Assembly: GCA_963719515.1 (NCBI GenBank)
Contig: CAVRCJ010000010.1
Span: 288,001-352,000 of the forward strand
Length of the DNA: 64,000 nt
Direction: 5' to 3'
DNA from: an uncultured cyanobacterium
GTDB taxonomy: Bacteria > Cyanobacteriota > Cyanobacteriia > CAKZMO01
Made by a program: the position numbers and the translations under genes. Below the pieces are notes generated by a model. That model was not told the origin of the DNA. It saw nothing but the letters and a program-made list of their open reading frames with translations, and ran no database searches. Every line of letters starts with the position of its first letter. Position 1 is the first letter of the stretch. Shown here piece by piece: positions 10,648 to 61,137 of the stretch.

Positions 10648-11676
10648 TTGACGCCTCAGGCGGACCTCATTCCCCAAGGCAGAGTCTACCCCCGAAATTC
10701 AGTGGTGAACGGCATGGAGCGAAATCACAACGTCCAAACGCTTTGGCGCAGCGCTGTGCGCATGGCTCGGTTTGCGCGCTTCTCCCAACCCACCCATCCC
10801 CTACCCGCCTGGTGCTTTTGGTCTGTCGCGGCCAATTTGGCGGGCGCGGGGCTCTTGGGGGGGGTGCTGATTTACGGGCAGATTCGCGCCGCTGCCTCGG
10901 CTGATCACGCTGCTAGCGCTAGCGCTGAGGCGGCTAGGCCCTCTGCACCGCACCCCGGTCGTTTAGCAACGTTTTCCCTCGGCGACGGGCAAGCCGCTGC
11001 CTCCAAGACATCCCTAGCGCCCCCAACCTCACTTGAGATTGGTCCTCGGCACAAGCTCGACTATCAAGACTGGCTAACCCTACTGGAGCAGGAGGCGATC
11101 GCGGTTAGCGAGCGATCGCCCGATCGGCTCACCGTTTTGCTGGGCGATTCCATCAGCCTGTGGTTTCCCCCCCACTTGCTCCCCCCTGAGCGCAGCTGGC
11201 TCAATCAGGGGATTTCAGGGGAGGTATCGTCGGGTCTGCTCAAGCGCCTAGACCTGATTGACCAGACCGAGCCTGAGACCGTCTTGGTGATGGTAGGCAT
11301 CAACGATTTGATTCGAGACGTCAGCTCCCAGACGCTGCTGGCCAACTACCAGCTGATTCTAGAAGAGCTGGTAGAGCATCATCCCAAGGCACAGCTTGTG
11401 GTGCAGTCGGTCTTGCCCCACGCTGGGGAAGCGGCCACCTGGGAAGGGGCAGCCCGGCTGCAGGAGATTCCCAACGCCGAAATCCGGGACATTAACGATG
11501 ACCTGAAGGCGATCGCCCTCAAGCACGACGCCCAGTACCTGGACCTCTACTCGCTGTTTAGCGACGGCGAAGGAAACCTGCGCTCGGAACTAACGACCGA
11601 CGGGCTGCACCTCAATACAAGCGGCTACCTGGTTTGGGCGACCGCGCTGCAGGTGTATCCCTTCGAAGATCGGTGA
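10648..11676 (+). CDS. SGNH/GDSL hydrolase (start uncertain)
   Basis: GDSI, NQGISG, GIND, DGLH blocks; N-terminal TM. Confidence 0.88.
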   Translation: MTPQADLIPQGRVYPRNSVVNGMERNHNVQTLWRSAVRMARFARFSQPTHPLPAWCFWSVAANLAGAGLLGGVLIYGQIRAAASADHAASASAEAARPSAPHPGRLATFSLGDGQAAASKTSLAPPTSLEIGPRHKLDYQDWLTLLEQEAIAVSERSPDRLTVLLGDSISLWFPPHLLPPERSWLNQGISGEVSSGLLKRLDLIDQTEPETVLVMVGINDLIRDVSSQTLLANYQLILEELVEHHPKAQLVVQSVLPHAGEAATWEGAARLQEIPNAEIRDINDDLKAIALKHDAQYLDLYSLFSDGEGNLRSELTTDGLHLNTSGYLVWATALQVYPFEDR

Positions 11677-12064
11677 CATCCTCCCGACGCTGACAGCAAG
11701 CTGTACAGCGCGGGCTTCCTCAGTGACTCCCAGCTATTGCCGAGACATATCCTGAGATAGGTTTATACTCCGCCTGATGCCCCACGGCAGAGTTTTGAAT
11801 TTTCATCTCCGCGAGGGAGGATACGCACTATGTGTCGCAGATACATTTGCAAACTGAGGAACGGGTGACTTGCAGCTTTCGCCTACGGGCCCGTCACACT
11901 CTTTGCGGGGTGTATCACCTTGCTATCTCTATCATACCAACTGCTAGCCTCAGCGCTGAGCGCACTATCCGCTGTGCATCATTTTGCGGGCGCACTTCGG
12001 CTAGCGCGACTCTCATCCCGACGCTCACCCTAACGGGTAGAGCGCGGGGCTTCCTGTCTAGTAG
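11673..12064 (-). mobile_element. Non-autonomous IS200/IS605 derivative, family A, copy 1 (392 bp)
   Basis: Ends match the IS at 24171-25970 (CCCGACGCT..AGCGCGGG hairpins, right end TCAC), preceded on - strand by TTTAG (12065-12069); near-identical to 13662-14053. Confidence 0.93.
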
Positions 12065-12123
12065 CTAAACTGGCATGGACTTTGCTAGGCTAAACGCAAT
12101 AGCGCGTACGCCAACGGCCCAGC

Positions 12124-13317
12124 ATGGATACCAAAACCTTCAAGCGATCGCTCAATCAGTCTGAGAACTATCACCGCAAAGGATTCGGCCACGAGGACGA
12201 CGTCTCGGGGATGATGGATAGCGAGTACCAAAGCTCTTTGATCCAAACCATTCGCGATCGCAACTACACCCTAACCCAGGGGGACGTTACGATTCACCTA
12301 GCCGAAGCGTTTGGGTTCTGCTGGGGCGTAGAGCGGGCGGTAGCGATGGCCTACGAGACGCGGCAGCATTTCCCTACTGAGCGCCTGTGGATCACCAACG
12401 AGATTATTCACAACCCCTCAGTGAATCAGCGGCTGCGGGAAATGCAGGTGCAGTTTGTGCCGATAGAGAGCGGCGTCAAGGACTTTTCCCCCATCGGGGC
12501 GGGAGACGTGGTGATTCTGCCTGCGTTTGGGGCCAGCGTTCAGGAGATGCAGACCCTCAACGACCGGGGCTGTGTCATTGTCGATACGACCTGTCCTTGG
12601 GTTTCTAAGGTGTGGAACTCGGTGGAAAAGCACAAGAAAAAAGAGTTCACCTCCATCATCCACGGCAAATATAAGCATGAGGAGACCGTAGCCACCAGCT
12701 CCTTTGCCGGGATCTACCTGGTGGTGCTGAACCTGGAAGAAGCCGAGTACGTGGCCCGCTATATCCTTGAAGGAGGCGATCGCGCGGAATTCCTAGAGAA
12801 GTTCCGCCACGCTCACTCCGATGGCTTTGACCCCGATCAGGATCTAAAGCGCGTGGGGGTGGCCAACCAAACCACCATGCTCAAAGGGGAGACGGAGCGC
12901 ATCGGCAAGCTGTTTGAGCACACCATGCTGACGAAGTATGGCCCTGCCGAGCTCATGGACCACTTCATGAGCTTCAACACCATCTGTGATGCCACCCAAG
13001 AGCGTCAAGATGCCATGTACCAGCTCATCGACCATCAGCTAGACCTGATGGTGGTCATCGGCGGCTACAACTCTTCTAACACCACCCACCTGCAGGAGAT
13101 TGCTGTGGATCGGGACATCCCGTCCTACCATATCGATAGCGCCGAGCGTATTGGTCCCGGTAACCAAGTCGAGCACAAACCTTTAGATGCGCCCCTCGAC
13201 CTGAAAACAGACTGGCTTCCCGAAGGTGCGATTACCGTTGGCGTCACCTCTGGGGCTTCGACGCCAGACCGCGTCGTCTCGGACGCTATTGAGAAAATCT
13301 TTGCGCTCAAAGCCTGA
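12124..13317 (+). CDS. ispH: 4-hydroxy-3-methylbut-2-enyl diphosphate reductase
   Basis: [39 protein letters not shown]. Confidence 0.97.
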
Positions 13318-13583
13318 TGCCGACCAAAAAGTCGAAATCGAAGCCCCTCACGGGCGACGCTCTGGTGAAAGAGGTCTGTCGCCGCATTCGCGTCGCCCGC
13401 TCCTACTGGGATGCCCACAATAATCGCGCCTGCCGAGGAGAACGAGAGAAAGCGCTGGCGCTCTATGAGCAGCTGACCCAAGCGCAAAAGGAAAAAGTGC
13501 CTCAGCAGCTACGCGTCTGGCTGCGCTACCGCAGCGAGAAGTACTTTGGGGAGCACCGCACGCCGCCCCATAAGTCACGCTGA
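13317..13583 (+). CDS. Small conserved cyanobacterial hypothetical protein
   Basis: TGATG coupling to ispH; basic 88-aa ORF. Confidence 0.7.
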   Translation: MPTKKSKSKPLTGDALVKEVCRRIRVARSYWDAHNNRACRGEREKALALYEQLTQAQKEKVPQQLRVWLRYRSEKYFGEHRTPPHKSR

Positions 13584-13661
13584 CGAACGCAATGCCCCCC
13601 CGCAGACAGCGCCAGCAGGGGGGCGATCGCCGTAAGCCTCGCGAACAGCTTACTAGACTGC

Positions 13662-14053
13662 GTGACATCCTCCCGACGCTGACAGCAAGCTGTACAGCGC
13701 GGGCTTCCTCAGTGACTCCCAGCTATTGCCGAGACATATCCTGAGATAGGTTTATACTCCGCCTGATGCCCCACGGCAGAGTTTTGAATTTTCATCTCCG
13801 CGAGGGAGGATACGCACTATGTGTCGCAGATACATTTGCAAACTGAGGAACGGGTGACTTGCAGCTTTCGCCTACGGGCCCGTCACACTCTTTGCGGGGT
13901 GTATCACCTTGCTATCTCTATCATACCAACTGCTAGCCTCAGCGCTGAGCGCACTATCCGCTGTGCATCATTTTGCGGGCGCACTTCGGCTAGCGCGACT
14001 CTCATCCCGACGCTCACCCTGACGGGTAGAGCGCGGGGCTTCCTGTCTAGTAG
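13662..14053 (-). mobile_element. Non-autonomous IS200/IS605 derivative, family A, copy 2 (392 bp)
   Basis: Direct repeat of 11673-12064 (one difference seen); target TTTAG at 14054-14058. Confidence 0.93.
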
Positions 14054-14785
14054 CTAAACCGTGAAGCTAAAGGCCATAAGCTCAGCTGAACTGGGGAAAA
14101 CGCCGCCATCAAACTGAGGCAGAGTGTCGAGCGGAACATCGATTTCAGGCCCCATTGCCGCTTCCGGCAGGCCTACGATAAAGATAGGGATTTCAGGCAG
14201 GGCACTCCCCTCGGTAAGTGGGTCAGTCGCCAAGGCGTCAGCAGCAAAGGGATCAATGGGGAGCAGTTCAGCTGGAATTTGGTAGACCGAGGCGATCGCT
14301 TCGCCTGCCACTGACGCCAGGACATCGACCACCAAATCGTAGTCCACGCCCACCGCAGGAATCTCTCCCGTCAGTGAGTCGACCACCGCCGTAATCACAA
14401 CGTCCCCGGTCATATCCTGCAGCCCAATGGCCAGGATGTTGGATACCTCCAAGGCAGGAGCTTCTAAAACAGCCTCGTCAGAGCCTTCGACTCGCTCTTC
14501 CGGAGTGCTCAGGGCTTCGAGAATAGCCAGCGTATCTGGGTCGGCAAATTCTCCGGTGACGTCTAGCTCGACGGGCAGCGTGCTGAATCCAAGCAAATCT
14601 ATTACGACGCTATTGACGACGCCCGCGTCTCGAAGCAGGTCCAAGGTAATAAACTTAACGGCCTCAAAGGAAATCTCAACAGTCGGCTCAACGAGCGGCG
14701 CTACCGGCAGGCTTGTCTCTGTAGGGACAACAGTTGCAGCAAATTGGCTTGCTACAGGTGAAGGGTTAGGGATGACAGCAGTCAT
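14054..14785 (-). CDS. Highly acidic hypothetical protein
   Basis: 243-aa ORF rich in D/E/V/P/A with almost no basic residues. Confidence 0.65.
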   Translation of the reverse strand: MTAVIPNPSPVASQFAATVVPTETSLPVAPLVEPTVEISFEAVKFITLDLLRDAGVVNSVVIDLLGFSTLPVELDVTGEFADPDTLAILEALSTPEERVEGSDEAVLEAPALEVSNILAIGLQDMTGDVVITAVVDSLTGEIPAVGVDYDLVVDVLASVAGEAIASVYQIPAELLPIDPFAADALATDPLTEGSALPEIPIFIVGLPEAAMGPEIDVPLDTLPQFDGGVFPSSAELMAFSFTV

Positions 14786-16120: not shown

Positions 16121-16585
16121 AAAAGGTGAGGTAATGTCCGGAAATAGTTCAAACTTCAATTATATTATTCGGAGGTGTTTGTCAAGGCCCGGAAAGGGCC
16201 AGTTTTGGAGATAGGTCTTCTGATCTTGACTTTTCCCGAAAAAGTGGACACTTCCGAAAAGAGGCTAAATAAAGATGTTCACATGTAGCAAATGTCCTGA
16301 TGCTTAGGACATTTGCGCGCCTCATTACCTATGCTATGTAAAGTTTTGAGTCCACGACACTGTCCTCAGCAATATGGCCAAAGCTATAAATCAGCAGCGA
16401 CGTCGAGAATTTGCAGACTTTTTAGCCAGACCAGCAAGGACGTCCTGGCCTCAATAAGTGGGTTGTGGGCAGACTCTGTGCCTCAGTTCAAGATTGGCGC
16501 GCTTTTTCTCTAGGTGTCCTTAAAGGCAGGGTGAAACACCTTATTTGCCAACGGCACCACGGCGGGTTGAGAGCACAGCCTATCT

Positions 16586-16681
16586 AAACCTTTGGCCAAA
16601 GCCGCTTGTTAAAACCTTTGGCCAAAGCCGCTTGTTAAAACCTTTGGCCAAAGCCGCTTGTTAAAACCTTTGGCCAAAGCC
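16586..16681. repeat. 26-bp tandem repeat, about 3.7 copies
   Basis: AAACCTTTGGCCAAAGCCGCTTGTTA starting at 16586, 16612, 16638 and a partial copy at 16664. Confidence 0.95.
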
Positions 16682-24112: not shown

Positions 24113-24216
24113 TGCCCATTTCCCTCGCTCCTACGCCGCTAGGGTACCCGGGATAGGAGAAGAGACAACTGTGACATCCTCCCGACGCTGATGCTACGCA
24201 TACAGCGCGGGCTTCC

Positions 24217-25413
24217 TCAGTGACTCCCAGCTACCGCTGAGACATTTCCTGAGAGATTAAGGGCTTGATGTCCCACAGCCCTATTCAATAGGTTGATAGC
24301 CGCGTTGTGGTCGCGACAGATCGTTAAGCCGCATGACGGGCAACTATGGACCCGATCGGCCAGCGTCTTTGGTACCCGCTCACCACAACCCGAGCAATCA
24401 ATGCTGGTTCCGCGTGGGTTCTCAGCGATGGTCATCTTTCCAGCTTTCGCGGCTTTGAAAGAGCCTATCTCCAAGAATGTACCCCATGCGGCATCAGCGA
24501 TTGACTTTGCCAGTCTGGTTCGAGCAAGTCCTTTGATGTTGAGCTTTTCATGAGCGACAACATCGTACTTTGAGAACAGCCAATCCCACACCTTAGAAAA
24601 GAAATCACGACGCTGACGCGATATCTTTAGATGTAGTTTGGCGATGCGATTTACCTGCTTACGCCAGCGGTTAGAGCCCTTCTTCTGTCTCGATAGCTGC
24701 CGCTGCAGCTTGGATAGCTGCCGCTCTGAGCGTCGAAAGAACTGAGGGATAGGAACGCTCTCACCGTCACTGGTAACCAAGAAATCCTTCAGCCCAACGT
24801 CAACACCGACAGACTTAGCCCTATCGACATCCGGAGTAAGCATCGGAACGGCATTGTTTTCCAGTAACAGGCTCACATACCAACCATCTGCTTTGCGAGT
24901 CACCTTGGCCGTTTTGACAGTAAACCCATCAGGTATCGGGCGATGAAGGATTAGCTTCACCTGGCCAATCTTAGGCAGGGTAATACGACTTCCATCGATG
25001 CAGTCAGGTTTCATCTGCGGGAACGTGAACGTCCTGTAGCGCCCCGCGCCTTTGAACCGAGGCTTGCCGCTACGCTTACCATTCCTATCACCTTTGATGA
25101 AACGCTCGAACGTCTGCTTTACCTGCTTCGTCACCTCCTGAAGCGCTTGTGAATGCAAATCTTTGTACCAGGGCCGCTCTCGCTTGAGAGGTACTAGGCT
25201 AGCCTTCTGGCTGTAGTAATTAGGATTATCTTTGAGTGGCGCAAGGCTACAGGTGAGTGGGCAGGCGTTGACCGAACAGCGGTTCATCTCCCACCAGTCG
25301 AAGCGCTCAGCCAGCAACCAGTTGTACTGTGCCCGAAGCATATCTAGCCATCGGGTCATGGTAACCGTTTGCTCAGCCGTTGGGCGTAACCTGTACTGAT
25401 GGGTGATTTTCAC
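24217..25413 (-). CDS. tnpB: RNA-guided endonuclease TnpB
   Basis: YRLRPT HTH, RuvC GVDVG / HEKL / RDHNAA, zinc finger CSGC..CPSC. Confidence 0.96.
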   Translation of the reverse strand: MKITHQYRLRPTAEQTVTMTRWLDMLRAQYNWLLAERFDWWEMNRCSVNACPLTCSLAPLKDNPNYYSQKASLVPLKRERPWYKDLHSQALQEVTKQVKQTFERFIKGDRNGKRSGKPRFKGAGRYRTFTFPQMKPDCIDGSRITLPKIGQVKLILHRPIPDGFTVKTAKVTRKADGWYVSLLLENNAVPMLTPDVDRAKSVGVDVGLKDFLVTSDGESVPIPQFFRRSERQLSKLQRQLSRQKKGSNRWRKQVNRIAKLHLKISRQRRDFFSKVWDWLFSKYDVVAHEKLNIKGLARTRLAKSIADAAWGTFLEIGSFKAAKAGKMTIAENPRGTSIDCSGCGERVPKTLADRVHSCPSCGLTICRDHNAAINLLNRAVGHQALNLSGNVSAVAGSH

Positions 25414-25466
25414 TACTGCGTCTAAGTCAGTGATATCATAATAGCATACGCTGATTTCGATGCACC

Positions 25467-25946
25467 ATGAAAAATGACTTTGTTTCTAGCGGTCGCTCAA
25501 TTTCAGACCTTAAGGCCCATCTGGTTTTGACGACGAAATACTGCCGTAAGGTTTTTACCGAAGAAATGATACGGCGACTTCTAGAGGTTGTCGGAGATCT
25601 GTGCGAGAAGTGGGACTGCAAGATGATTGAGTTCAACGGAGAGGCCGACCACGTTCATCTGCTGTTTCAGTATTATCCGCAGATGGAGCTACCCAAGTTC
25701 GTCAGTAATTTGAAGTCTGTTTCCAGCCGCAGGCTGAGGTCGGAGTTCGCGGAGCGAGTAGACCAGTTCTACTGGAAGTCTGTTCTCTGGAACGAATCGT
25801 ACTTTATCGCCAGTTGTGGCGGGGTCACTGTCTCTGTGCTGAAACGGTACATTGAGCAGCAGGACGCCCCGGAGATGGGTGCTTCTGGGGCATTGAACCC
25901 CGTCAGCACCCGCGACTCTCATCCCGACGCTCACCCTAGCGGGTAG
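25467..25946 (+). CDS. tnpA: Y1 (HUH) transposase TnpA
   Basis: HLVLTTKY, DHVHLL, LKSVSSR, LWNESYF, RYIEQQ. Confidence 0.96.
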   Translation: MKNDFVSSGRSISDLKAHLVLTTKYCRKVFTEEMIRRLLEVVGDLCEKWDCKMIEFNGEADHVHLLFQYYPQMELPKFVSNLKSVSSRRLRSEFAERVDQFYWKSVLWNESYFIASCGGVTVSVLKRYIEQQDAPEMGASGALNPVSTRDSHPDAHPSG

Positions 25947-25978
25947 ATCGCGGGGCTTCCCGTCTAGCAGCTAAAGCG

Positions 25979-36664: not shown

Positions 36665-37086
36665 GTGACATACTCCCGACGCTCATTCTACGAATAGAGC
36701 GCGGGCTTCTTGGCTCGCGCACCACAAATGAATGGGTGCCGCACAAGAAAGTTTCCTGCTTCTCCTGGTCTTGTCTAGCCAAACAGCAAGCTGTATGACC
36801 CCGATTAGATCCCATCCACAGGCAATTTATTTTACGTCCAGGCAATGACCAACCCCAGACAGACTACTTTTTTGAGCTTCCTTTCTTCCAAAAACTGTGT
36901 CGCGTCACCGTTATGTTTTCTATGGGTGATATTTTTCTCGACGAACACTTTGGAGGGGTAGAAAACCTTGCAAACAGTTGATATGTATACATTCTAGCAT
37001 GAATAAGGATTGTTCGCCTTTGGCTCACGAGCCTTTCATCCCGACGCTGATGCTGCGCATACAGCGCGGGACTTCCCGTCTAAGAG
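36665..37086 (-). mobile_element. Non-autonomous IS200/IS605 derivative, family B, copy 1 (422 bp)
   Basis: Ends match 59740-61137; target TTTAA at 37087-37091; inverted near-copy of 44124-44545. Confidence 0.93.
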
Positions 37087-39851: not shown

Positions 39852-42800
39852 TTAATCGCTGATTCCCTGAAGGGCCTTTTGCTGCTCTTCCAAAATCCAA
39901 TCCGCGTCGGGGGTGAGTTCTAAGGCGCGTTCGAAATCGGTTAGGGCCTGCTCGTAGCGTTCTGTCTGCCGATAAGCTGTGCCGCGCTTGGCGATCGCCC
40001 AGGCATAGTCATTATTTAGCTCAATAGCCCGGTCGAAGTCTGTTAGAGCTTCTTCATAGCGCACCATCAAACGGTAAGTTTCGCCGCGGCTAGCGATCGC
40101 CCAGTCATCGCTAGGGGCGAGTTCAATGGCTCGATTGAGGTCTGTCAGAGCTTCTTCATAGCGTTCTATTTTGCGGTAGGCGTCGCCACGGTTACCAATT
40201 GCGATCGCATATTGAGGGTCGATGTCGATGGCTTGGGTGTAGTCTGCAATGGCCGCGTCTAAGTCGCCCTGGTCGCTGCGAGCATTGCCGCGATTGTTGT
40301 AAGCGATCGCATATTGAGGGTCGATGTCGATGGCTTGGGTGTAGTCTGCAATGGCCGCGTCTAAGTCGCCCTGGTCGCTGCGAGCATTGCCGCGATTGTT
40401 GTAAGCGAACGCATATTGAGGGTCGAGGTCGATAGCTTGGGTGTAGTCTGCAATGGCCCCATCTAAGTCGCCCTGGGCTCTGCGAGCATTGCCGCGATTT
40501 TTATAGAAAAGCGCTTTTTGGGGCTCGAGTTCAATAGCTTGAGTAAAATCTCTAATCGCTCCTCGGCCATCGCCTTGTGCTTCGCGGGCAAGGCCACGGC
40601 TATTGTAGGCACATGGAACACATGAAGCGGGAGGTTGAATCTCGATAGCTTGAGTAAGATCCTCAATAGCCTGCTCTAGATTTCCCTCGCCAAAATGAAT
40701 CTGCCCACGAGCATAGTACCCATAGGCATTCTCGGGATCAAGGTCAATAGCCTGGCTGAAATTCTTTACTGCTTCCTCATAGCGTTCTAGCTCTTCATAA
40801 GCTTCTCCCAAATGGATATAAGCATTCACCAAACTAGGCCTAACCTCTACAGCACGAGAGTAGTCTTCAATGGCTCCTACAATATCACCTTGTGCTTTGC
40901 GGACAAGGCCACGACCAACATAAGCACATGGAACACACGGAGCAGGAGGTTGAATTTCAATAGCCTGAGTAAAATCTTCAATGGCCTGCTCTAACTTATC
41001 CTGGCCATAGTAAAGGCTAGCTCGCCAATAGTAAGCATCAGAAAATTGAGGATCAAGCTCGATAGTTCGAGTATAATCCTCAGTAGCTCCTACAATATCG
41101 TCTTGTTCAATACTGTTGCGCTCACGGCGAGCCCTGCCGCGATAATAGTAAGTAATTGCATCCAAAGGATTATAAGATATAGCACGGTCAAAATCCCCAA
41201 TTGCCGCTTGCAAGTTACCTTGATTTCTATAAACAACGCCACGTAATTTGTGAAGCTCTCCTCTTTTCTCTCTGTTCGAGGTTTTTTCGAGCTTACGCGA
41301 GTAATAGCTAATGGCATAGTCGAAATCGGCGAGCGATTTCTCTTCGTTTCCTTGACGCTCATGAATAAGGCCACGAGTAAGATATGCCTCTGGATACTCA
41401 GGCTGAAGCGCTATAGCAGAATTTACTTGTTCTAACGCAAGCGGGTAATTCTCTGAAATTAGCAGTGAGATACCTATGTAATGATAAGCGTCTGCGTCTT
41501 CAGGATAAATCTCAAGTAACGTATTACTAGCTATAGCAATAATTTCAGCTTCTTCTCTCTCTAAAACAAGGCCGGCTGATGGCAAGGGCTCTACATTTAA
41601 TGATTGGCGCGAGCCCTCAACTGCATTGGCAGTCGTTGCATTTCCTAATTGTATAGGCGTGAGCGAGTTGCCGCTAAATAAATTCCACGTTAACGTAGAA
41701 AGTGTGTTTCTCAAATTCTCTGCTGTTACTGTATTTGGCTCAATCTCAAGCGCCCGTGTATAAGATTTTACGGCTTCAAGTACGCGCCTAGAACTCAGAA
41801 AAGCATTGCCACGCCCAACATGAGCGATGTGATTATCTGAACTGATATCTATAACCGCGTCGAAGCTTTGTAGGGCAAGATCAAAATCCCCCATTTGTGT
41901 ATGAAATTCTCCTTTAGCTATTAGAGCGTGTAAATTGTCAGAGTTTTCTCTTAGAATTTTATTAAGCTGAGCGATCGCCTCTTCACGATTCCCTTGGGCA
42001 AAACTAGACACAGCAGCAGTTATCGGAAAAATATCTTCCAAATCGCGCTCTTGCTCGGCAATATTAGCTTGTAGTATATCGGCCTCTTCTTCGGCTGCTT
42101 CGACGTCACGTAAAGCCTGCTCACGATCTGTCTGTGCAATAGTCAAATCGCCCCGAGCTTCAGACAAATTTTGTCGTGCTACTTCGGCTTGCTGCTGTGC
42201 TGAAGCTTGTTCGGCCTGAGCCTGTTTCGCGTCCTGGGTAGCTTGCTGATTTTGCCGCTTTAAAGCATTGTTGGTGTTTTGTAACCCGCTATTCTCCCCG
42301 GCCAATGTCTGATTTTTAGCTTGTAGCTCGCTCTGCTCATCTTGGACACCTTTTAGCTCCCGCAAGGCATCTGATTTGTCACCCTCAGCTTGTTGAGACA
42401 CCTGTAAAGCATTTTGCTTTTCGCGCTCAGCCTGCTGTGATTCCTGCTTAGACTCCTCAGCAAGAATTCGCTGCTCCGACGCTTCACGGGAAGCCACGTC
42501 TGCCCTGTTAATAGCCCAGCCCGAAAATATAGCCAATAGGCCCAACAGGCCAACACCTGCACCTGCTGCCCTACGACTAACCTTCTGCACCTGTTCCAGT
42601 TTCTGCCGCGCGATCGCAAGCTGCCCATTCGTCTCCTCCAGCGCCAGATTCCGCGCCTCCAGCCGCTGACTCGCCGCCGCCACCGCCGCCCGTTTCTCCT
42701 CCAGCTCCCGCCGCAGTCCCAGCTTCTGGCTCTCCACCAAATACTCATAATCCTGCTTGCTCAAGCTCCGCGACTCCGCCCAGTCCAGCGCCGCCCCAAG

Positions 42801-44123: not shown

Positions 44124-44545
44124 CTTTTAGACGGGAAGTCCCGCGCTGTATGCGCAGCATCAGCGTCGGGATGAAAGGCGCGTGAGCCAAAGGCGAACAA
44201 TCCTTATTCATGCTAGAATGTATACATATCAACTGTTTGCAAGGTTTTCCACCCCTCCAAAGTGTTCGTCGAGAAAAATATCACCCATAGAAAACGTAAC
44301 GGTGACGCGACACAGTTTTTGGAAGAAAGGAAGCTCAAAAAAGTAGTCTGTCTGGGGTTGGTCATTGCCTGGACGTAAAATAAATTGCCTGTGGATGGGA
44401 TCTAATCGGGGTCATACAGCTTGCTGTTTGGCTAGACAAGACCAGGAGAAGCAGGAAACTTTCTTGTGCGGTACCCATTCATTTGTGGTGCGCGAGCCAA
44501 GAAGCCCGCGCTCTATTCGTAGAATGAGCGTCGGGAGTATGTCAC
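44124..44545 (+). mobile_element. Non-autonomous IS200/IS605 derivative, family B, copy 2 (422 bp)
   Basis: TTTAA at 44119-44123, ends in TCAC; about 5 differences seen from copy 1. Confidence 0.93.
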
Positions 44546-50619: not shown

Positions 50620-51027
50620 GTGAATACTCCCTATGCGAACCGTCTTGACCTTGAATCCATTAGGGATAGGGCGGTGCAGAACGATGCGCATCGTGCCCAG
50701 CTTAAGCAACTTGATTTGGCTACCCGTCACCGGGTTTTCCTTGAACTGCGGAAAGAGGAACGAGCGGTACTGCCCAAACTTTTTGAAGCGCGGAAAACCA
50801 TGACCTCTCTCCTTCCTCGCAGCAAATGCTGCCTCTACCCTGCGAATAGGCTCTTGAAGCACCTGAGACTGCACGTCCTTCAGGTGAGGAAATATCTTCT
50901 TAGCCGCAGTCAGCGCATTTTGCTGCTTGTAGTAGTGCGCCGCTCCTTAATTGTTCGCCTACGGCTCACGCGCCCTTCATCCCGACGCTGATGCTGCGCA
51001 TACAGCGCGGGACTTCCCGTCTAATAG
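50620..51027 (-). mobile_element. Doubly deleted family-B tnpB element
   Basis: Left end with TTTAA (51028-51032), internal tnpB fragment, only the last 12 bp of the right end (GGGAGTATTCAC). Confidence 0.9.
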
Positions 51028-51033
51028 TTAAAG

Positions 51034-51076
51034 AGCCCCGCAGTGCCAGAACACTATGTCTTGGCACTGCGGGGCT
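51034..51076 (-). terminator. Intrinsic terminator hairpin
   Basis: AGCCCCGCAGTGCCA / TGGCACTGCGGGGCT. Confidence 0.75.
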
Positions 51077-59699: not shown

Positions 59700-59737
59700 A
59701 TCGCCACCAAGCCCATTTCGGCTTGGTGGCGATTTTT
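59700..59737 (+). terminator. Intrinsic terminator
   Basis: 14-bp stem ATCGCCACCAAGCC/GGCTTGGTGGCGAT followed by a T-run. Confidence 0.85.
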
Positions 59738-59739
59738 AA

Positions 59740-61137
59740 CTGGTAGACGGGAAGTCCCGCGCTGTATGCGCAGCATCAGCGTCGGGATGAGAGGCGCGTG
59801 AGCCGTAGGCGAGCGATTAAGGAGTGTCTCACTACTCCTTAAAAACGCTATAATCGAGGTATGTTGACCTTGAACTACTCCTACAGAATTTATCCGTCTG
59901 TTGAGCAGGAAGCCCGTATGGTCTGTTGGCTTGAGACCTGTCGCGGCGTCTACAACTATGCGCTGCGCGAACGCAAGGACTGGGTAAAGTCGAGAAGCTG
60001 TGCGGCTAATGCCTGCTCGCTTCAGTCGGAGTACGTCATGGCGGCGGACGCGCCATATCCTGACTACTACAAGCAGCAAAATGCGCTGACTGCGGCTAAG
60101 AAGGTATTTCCTCACCTGAAGGACGTGCAGTCTCAGGTGCTTCAAGAGCCTATTCGCAGGGTAGAGGCAGCATTTGCTGCGAGGAAGGAGAGAGGCCACG
60201 GTTTCCCGCGCTTCAAAAAGTTTGGGCAGTACCGCTCGTTCCTCTTTCCGCAGTTCAAGGAAAACCCGGTGACGGGTAGCCAAATCAAGTTGCCTAAGCT
60301 AGGCACGATGCGCATCGTTCTGCACCGCCCTATCCCAGAAGGGTTTGCGGTGAAAACGGTGCGCATCATCAAAAAGCATTCGGGGTGGTACGCTACCGCG
60401 AGTATTCAAGCTGATGTCAATGTTCCTGATGCCATCCCTGCTGGGGACAGCATTGGTATTGATGTCGGGCTTGAGTATTTCCTGTCCACTTCCAACGGTT
60501 TGCAGGTAGAGCGCCCGCGCTTTTTCGGTAAGCTGCAGCGCAAGCTTAAATTGCTGCAACGCAGGCTGAAGAATAAGCAGCGGCGCTCGAATAACCGCGC
60601 CAAGCTCATCGGAAGAATTGGACGGGTGCATGAGCAGATAGCCGCTTGCCGCCTTGACTGGCAGTTCAAGCTGGCCCACAAGCTTTGTGACCAGGCCCAG
60701 ATCATCTTCGTGGAAGACCTTGACTTTCGCATCATGGCGAAAGGGATGCTGGGTAAACACACACTCGATGCTGGCTTGGGGCAGTTCATAAACCAGGTCT
60801 TGCCATGGGTGTGCTTCAAGCGCGGCGTCTATTACGGCAAGGTTGACCCGTATGGCACCTCTCAGGAGTGCCCAGACTGCGGCGCTGTGGTCAAAAAATC
60901 GTTGGGCGATCGCGTTCATCGTTGTGGTGAATGCGGGTCGCTCAAGCCGAGAGATATTGCCGCTGCTCAAGTCATCAACGCCCGTGGAATTTCGGGTATT
61001 CAAATTGCCTGTGGAGTCGAGGTAGCGGGGATGTGGGAAACCATATCTAGCCAACTGGCCCAGAAGCAGGAAGCTCATCGGGTGACCGATGAAGCCCGCG
61101 CTCTATCGCATCAGCGATGAGCGTCGGGAGTATTCAC
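59740..61137 (+). mobile_element. IS1341-type element (tnpB only), family B
   Basis: TTTAA at 59735-59739, end hairpins, right end TCAC. Confidence 0.95.
59861..61120 (+). CDS. tnpB: RNA-guided endonuclease TnpB
   Basis: YRIYP, GIDVG / VEDL / RDIAAA RuvC, CPDC..CGEC; TATAAT at 59849 suggests a leaderless mRNA. Confidence 0.96.
   Translation: MLTLNYSYRIYPSVEQEARMVCWLETCRGVYNYALRERKDWVKSRSCAANACSLQSEYVMAADAPYPDYYKQQNALTAAKKVFPHLKDVQSQVLQEPIRRVEAAFAARKERGHGFPRFKKFGQYRSFLFPQFKENPVTGSQIKLPKLGTMRIVLHRPIPEGFAVKTVRIIKKHSGWYATASIQADVNVPDAIPAGDSIGIDVGLEYFLSTSNGLQVERPRFFGKLQRKLKLLQRRLKNKQRRSNNRAKLIGRIGRVHEQIAACRLDWQFKLAHKLCDQAQIIFVEDLDFRIMAKGMLGKHTLDAGLGQFINQVLPWVCFKRGVYYGKVDPYGTSQECPDCGAVVKKSLGDRVHRCGECGSLKPRDIAAAQVINARGISGIQIACGVEVAGMWETISSQLAQKQEAHRVTDEARALSHQR

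Follow-up and report, generated by a model that had tools for sequence, protein, structure and literature searches.

The 392-bp element found twice in the window (the whole 64,000-nucleotide stretch of cyanobacterial DNA analysed here) is, by all sequence tests, a gene-less mini-transposon of the IS200/IS605 type (a PATE). The ~120 nt at its right end retain a TnpB omegaRNA scaffold, as judged from homology to tnpB-linked scaffolds and compensatory changes in the stems. The element probably works (a probability of roughly 0.65) as an omegaRNA cassette acting in trans, with its own promoter, scaffold and conserved folded leader. Protein-less guide elements are themselves known, and the less-known part is the leader, a portable and conserved domain of ~130 nt that precedes the omegaRNA scaffold.

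Anatomy and spread of the element

On the minus strand, the element is composed in order of the left hairpin, a second hairpin, an extended -10 motif, the ~130-nt leader, the ~120-nt scaffold with the right hairpin, and TCAC (Table 1). An earlier reading of this DNA (the sequence-only reading) described two 392-bp copies keeping both TnpA end hairpins, with an extended -10 aimed at the right end and a predicted guide start for each copy. The hairpins, the coordinates of the -10 and both guide starts are correct, and both copies lie in the window, one base apart; the count of two, however, applies to the window only, with a BLAST search of the genome to which it belongs (G000, 5.28 Mb) returning 53 full copies of 33 distinct sequences, 96.7–100% identical. 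No ORF of 100 aa is present in the element, and a 28-codon frame is not preserved in genome G004. A small peptide encoded in the leader or scaffold was considered and ruled out, with the frame lost in G004 or G260.

Table 1. Positions of the element copies, their parts and the related IS605 within the 64-kb window.
Feature	Position	Strand	Remarks
PATE copy 1, 392 bp, ORF-less IS200/IS605 derivative	11673..12064	-	TTAG before left end, TCAC at right end
PATE copy 2	13662..14053	-	differs from copy 1 by one base, 12032
Insertion motif and predicted TAM (TTTAG), outside left end of copy 1	12065..12069	-	TTAG in 53/53 copies
Left-end subterminal hairpin, putative TnpA binding	12017..12052	-	93–94% identity with left ends of cognate IS copies
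Second hairpin, between left end and promoter	11943..12005	-	hairpin at same place in other PATE families too
Extended -10 promoter-like motif, points to right end	11931..11939	-	predicted transcription start near 11924
Leader RNA domain, ~130 nt, not tnpB-derived, without Rfam match	11795..11924	-	
Conserved stem-loop of leader	11840..11916	-	covarying outer 6-bp stem; near-invariant centre 11860–11896
OmegaRNA scaffold	11673..11793	-	hairpin 1 11793–11767, hairpin 2 11757–11718, right-end hairpin 11714–11683, predicted pseudoknot
Predicted guide of copy 1 (putative role)	11653..11672	-	flank, antisense to 3' end of GDSL-lipase gene
Predicted guide of copy 2 (putative role)	13642..13661	-	flank
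Complete IS605, same end motifs as PATE, probable provider of TnpA and TnpB acting in trans	24171..25970	-	
tnpB, 398 aa	24217..25413	-	RuvC residues D205, E289, D368 present
tnpA (Y1 transposase), 159 aa	25467..25946	+	

All 53 copies have TTAG 5' of the left end and TCAC at the right end, with the right flanks being 53 different sequences. The TTTAG motif proposed in the sequence-only reading holds for 47 of the copies, but three have GTTAG and three CTTAG, so the motif is TTAG. The orthologous GDSL-ispH interval of genome G002 is an empty site without the element. IS605-like subterminal palindromes are present, terminal inverted repeats and protein-coding genes are absent, and the dispersed copies share a fixed 4–5-nt motif with no target duplication. 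The copy number, the TTAG and TCAC ends, the distinct flanks, the empty G002 site and the ends shared with the IS place the element within the sequence definition of a homogeneous PATE, as worded in the defining passages of PMC3119063.

The insertion point of copy 1 is the stop codon of a GDSL-lipase gene (window 10648–11676), for which the element supplies a new in-frame stop that leaves the protein end unchanged, and copy 2 lies directly behind the TAG stop of an ORF at 14785–14054 (window 14054–14785). Across the genome, stop codons of long frames host 13/53 copies and the interiors of long frames 3/53, compared with 253/597 random TTAG sites inside long frames. Copies 1 and 2 flank ispH/lytB (12124–13317) in direct orientation, and this arrangement (window 11673–14053) is a potential composite unit or deletion substrate.

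The right end as an omegaRNA scaffold

Homology between the right end of the element and the tnpB 3'/omegaRNA region of the IS at 24171–25970, noted previously, extends over ~120 nt, with BLAST giving 87% identity over 85 nt and the similarity continuing to about 11793; the tail frame of tnpB is still readable here. Folding of the final 125 nt is much more stable than that of shuffled sequences (z = -4.56, 0/200) and gives three hairpins, which are also those of the IS end. In an alignment of nine ends (four gene-less, three tnpB-linked and two remnants), pairing holds for 91.4% of cells, and two-sided changes are seen in 16 of the 34 pairs, values possibly inflated by related sequences and by a structure derived from these same sequences; the alignment is also small. 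None of 500 shuffles reaches these values, and slid controls reach 36–48%.

Comparison of the PATE with the IS shows changes on both strands in 5/6 pairs of hairpin 1, which lies ~100 nt from the element end and outside the TnpA hairpin. This is counted in favour of the scaffold, as recognition of the right hairpin by TnpA would not demand such changes. The predicted pseudoknot between loop 1 and the last bases is paired in 82% of cells, with a two-sided change in only one of its eight pairs. The scaffold model matches 66/151 genomes of the class, and among the 28 loci inspected outside G000 both tnpB-linked and gene-less ends are present.

The leader: origin, structure and distribution

The ~120-nt interior is, as previously claimed, absent from the IS at 24171 (leader local score of 50, against a shuffle mean of 53), and the element is not a simple internal-deletion product, the leader giving no match to tnpB by DNA or protein profiles. 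Decayed tnpB, a case of the decayed coding sequence that the sequence-only reading had itself named as an outcome that would speak against it, was rejected as the origin of the leader, with 0/13 leaders matching a DNA profile of 29 tnpB C-termini. Protein scores fall within the shuffle range, although the sensitivity of these DNA and protein profile tests is overstated, as their positive control was part of the training set. The 42 nt of the leader next to the scaffold show about 40% anchored identity to tnpB, and a faint tnpB trace in this stretch is possible.

The leader had also been described as hairpin-rich. Alone, it folds no better than shuffles (z = -0.57), so hairpin richness by itself is not evidence; the part of the description that stands is the structure, which is backed by covariation in homologs. 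The outer 6-bp stem is formed by three unrelated sequences in three subgroups, yet retains 6/6 pairs in 12 of 13 sequences, with none of 78 cross-subgroup swaps pairing 6/6 when given the same register freedom. Additionally, the next stem of the G002 leader has inserted bases in both strands, and these pair with each other. Enclosed by these stems is a 36-nt centre that is near-invariant and largely unpaired. All 53 copies in G000 deviate from the inter-family consensus in this centre, 52 of them at two positions, and the family expanded regardless; a single copy (G000:C5:56237–56628) matches the consensus at one of the positions. Searches of Rfam 15, including HEARO, riboswitches and ribozymes, return no match up to an E of 10 for either the element or its G050 homolog, and the twister-sister, c-di-AMP riboswitch, RNase P and rRNA motifs to which the leader could be likened fit poorly, as checked through Rfam only.

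Within G000 the hits of a leader-only model are the 53 copies, with no others. The same model matches 9/151 class genomes, a motif search 12/401 genomes (reverse-pattern control, 0), and a wider model 6/151 genomes of one family, together with 1/151 in a phylum sample, this being the centre genome itself. In total the leader is present in 16 cyanobacterial genomes (G000 and 15 further) from 7 families. No tnpB gene was found beside it at 25 loci outside G000 by tblastn of the fetched flanks with one TnpB query, some of these loci being cut by contig ends and the left hairpin not being seen in all. The leader precedes two scaffold subtypes, each also occurring on tnpB genes: the subtype of the window in the G002, G004, G260 group, and a second subtype in the G050 group, which is similar to the end of another tnpB of G260 (73% over 123 nt). 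The leader is a portable, conserved RNA domain, an uncatalogued fold under evident selection across the 7 families.

Searches of genomes, plasmids and viral contigs found the leader in PATEs only, with no occurrence on plasmids. Candidate matches from a metagenome pattern scan were all dismissed as chance (8/8), as were the two matches of one viral scan, another viral scan giving 0.

Other PATE families have unrelated leaders at the same place, four of these families being in G000, and the leader model of the present family (family A) matches neither the other PATE families of G000 nor PATE leaders of the G008, G040, G052, G148, G290 or G356 types. Unrelated leaders at one and the same position point to a generic need.

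This bears on whether the leader could be independent cargo, that is, an RNA that binds a ligand or a protein or acts as a catalyst, or else a signal in single-stranded DNA, freed by the 5' trimming of TnpB and having a job unrelated to loading. A near-invariant, largely unpaired centre between freely varying stems is what one would expect of an aptamer or ribozyme, and movement of the leader between scaffold subtypes would also suit such cargo; its confinement to PATEs and the unrelated leaders of other families argue the other way, and we consider the cargo account quite unlikely. Doubtful, though worth stating, is a further proposal, in which the leader would be a portable functional RNA module of a new class, its 36-nt centre acting as an aptamer, ribozyme or protein-binding site. 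Gene-less omegaRNA parasites would add it to the guide scaffolds of TnpB proteins from different clades, enabling these elements to capture TnpB in trans, to outcompete it or to regulate it. If this were true, the elements would form a long-lived, RNA-only selfish lineage with an RNA domain of its own rather than decay products, and the leader might be usable as a natural enhancer of TnpB guides expressed in trans.

Several further elements were observed alongside family A. A second ORF-less PATE family of 421 bp with at least 4 copies (window 36665–37085 and 44125–44545) differs from family A in leader and scaffold type and has an extended -10 of its own. Its left end recurs in tnpB-only elements, both truncated and full, that belong to another TnpB clade (window 50633–51039 and 59728–61120). 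Outside the window, G000 contains further PATE families of 449 bp (at least 14 copies), 442 bp and 439 bp. A separate PATE lineage (L025:1488–1914, L090, L092 and L081, in G008, G075, G040 and G334) has its own conserved leader before the same scaffold subtype, and this leader may include part of a second omegaRNA type. Two repeats were also noted in the window, a tandem repeat of 26 nt at 16560–16681 and, in the 1378-aa ORF, a coding repeat of 102 nt at 40099–40559.

Promoter-like motif and RNA contigs

The extended -10 (TGnTAnnnT) differs only at free positions among three congeners, and its TAnnnT portion is invariant in 14/14 aligned leader-bearing sequences whilst the surroundings diverge. 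The strict motif occurs in the interior on the sense strand of 11/13 PATE families and on the antisense strand of 2/13, with 1.3 expected from shuffles, these 13 families having been picked from loci in hand and not being fully independent. An automated promoter scan did not flag the extended -10; its output had one site, on the antisense strand. A similar motif lies before tnpB in tnpB-only elements, so the promoter-like motif of the PATE may be inherited from a tnpB-only ancestor.

Metatranscriptome data were searched in 3 runs from 2 studies (share 0.05), as contigs without strand or start information, and the contigs recovered are from relatives at about 90% identity, not from this organism. 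One RNA contig of 238 nt runs from 11882 to the right end and continues into 26 flank bases. The two other runs, both from one study, gave a contig beginning within the -10 motif and a second one spanning the left end and adjoining flank.

Cognate TnpA and TnpB

The end motifs of the PATE also mark 22 BLAST matches to the tnpB-bearing IS, with three of the elements carrying tnpA as well, and these three cognate tnpA genes share the same ends as the PATE. Among 24 tblastn pieces of >90% identity, 17 are intact, full-length TnpB with three RuvC motifs. The IS at 24171 had been taken as the parent of the element, and this does not hold: its right hairpin differs from that of the PATE, which is instead identical letter for letter to that of a tnpB IS in G111 (L076; 85% over 116 nt), making the IS at 24171 a sister rather than the parent.

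Two observations count against the cassette model, namely that a TnpB with matching scaffold in the same genome was found only in G000, or 1/11 of the leader-bearing genomes examined (mostly draft assemblies), and that the G000 copies depart from the consensus in the leader centre. In 4 of the 10 other leader-bearing genomes, again mostly draft assemblies, the G000 TnpB query finds no TnpB at E 1e-30. Both observations would fit a relic, in which TnpA alone spreads the family, the scaffold and leader being inherited from a working ancestor and here neither expressed nor loaded, and the copies are too young, at the identity given above, to reveal selection within the genome. The -10, the scaffold stems and the leader stems are nonetheless intact, with compensatory or wobble changes even among three congeners, and intact cognate TnpB is abundant in G000, making a relic unlikely. 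As regards the sequence, the trans-acting guide-RNA cassette put forward in the sequence-only reading is thus favoured in part, by the PATE structure, the intact scaffold, the conserved promoter-like motif, the intact cognate TnpB of the genome and the origin of the leader from something other than decayed tnpB, with the two observations above weighing on the other side.

Guides and proposed mechanism

No guide has a TTAG-adjacent self-target with ≤2 mismatches in 16 nt (0/53, against 7/530 controls), and perfect guide-target runs of ≥9 occur for 3/53 guides against 86/530 controls, a difference that is a hint at most, as the control was not composition-matched. The lack of a close TTAG-adjacent target in the genome is as expected if the targets are empty sites.

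In the cassette model, the TnpA of complete IS605 copies would move the PATE in trans by peel-and-paste, as suggested by the biology of IS605. Transcription from the element's own promoter would give an RNA of ~270 nt, the front half being the folded leader and the back half the guide scaffold, which TnpB from the 17 intact tnpB copies would load in trans. The first 16–20 flank bases would serve as the guide, with TnpB cutting TTAG joined to the flank, a joint that would arise only after excision of the PATE from a sister chromosome; repair by recombination would then copy the PATE back. A protective or loading role of the leader, replacing co-expression with tnpB, is the favoured interpretation, in which the leader would provide what the tnpB message gives in cis, that is, protection of the 5' end and survival of the free RNA until TnpB binds, after which it may be trimmed off by TnpB.

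Scaffold RNA could instead damp TnpB, with transcripts from 53 promoters titrating the protein as decoys or the leader keeping the RNA inactive. The ratio of PATE copies to intact tnpB copies (53 vs 17) is in keeping with titration, and an mRNA region pairing with the omegaRNA is described as inhibiting cleavage in the relevant passages of PMC10278001. Restorative homing, however, needs precisely a guide-bearing, intact scaffold, and pairing of the leader with tnpB or tnpA mRNA is at chance level, its antisense match to the IS being only 9–10 nt. A decoy or regulator is accordingly very unlikely in our assessment, and the trans-acting cassette is preferred.

G000 offers a clean test set for this model: a single scaffold with 53 natural guides, 17 intact nucleases cognate to it, and an insertion motif that is known. 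If the leader raises the stability or loading of a guide made apart from tnpB, it would bear on how split protein/guide systems become workable, a step towards CRISPR-Cas12, and would be relevant to guide design for TnpB editors.

Comparison with known systems

The use in trans by TnpB of omegaRNAs encoded by PATEs has already been described (10.1101/2023.03.14.532601, PMC10055086), placing the main idea of the sequence-only reading among known kinds, and a separately expressed omegaRNA active in trans is described for an IS607 element in the relevant part of 10.1101/2023.11.20.567912. PATE omegaRNAs are thus an earlier proposal, and one that the literature passages on them do not dissect. Our literature search, mostly of open papers, found no description of a PATE with promoter and leader, which does not prove its absence, and the portions of PMC4810608 and PMC13565253 consulted contain nothing on leaders.

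The PATE-like elements of Geobacillus stearothermophilus (PMC10055086) likewise have no ORF, keep both IS ends and carry a right-end omegaRNA for TnpB in trans, whereas an internal promoter and a conserved leader not derived from tnpB are not described in the passages of that study on these elements. The 'homogeneous' PATEs of Haloquadratum walsbyi, as characterised in the passages of PMC3119063 on these elements, share the near-terminal palindromes of IS605 type, the lack of inverted terminal repeats and an expansion at >90% identity; they are, however, described as deletion derivatives having fused ends or C-terminal remnants, in contrast to the foreign conserved RNA module lying behind a promoter-like motif in the present element. 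The omegaRNA of ISDra2 (~116 nt; PMC10097598) and the omegaRNAs processed by TnpB (PMC10278001) resemble the predicted RNA in having a scaffold of ~120 nt at the right end, a pseudoknot between a loop and the 3' end, in the present element a predicted one, and a guide drawn from the flank. According to the sections of these two papers on omegaRNA, the 5' part of those RNAs is tnpB coding sequence, dispensable and trimmed, whilst in the present element its place is taken by a separately conserved non-coding domain.
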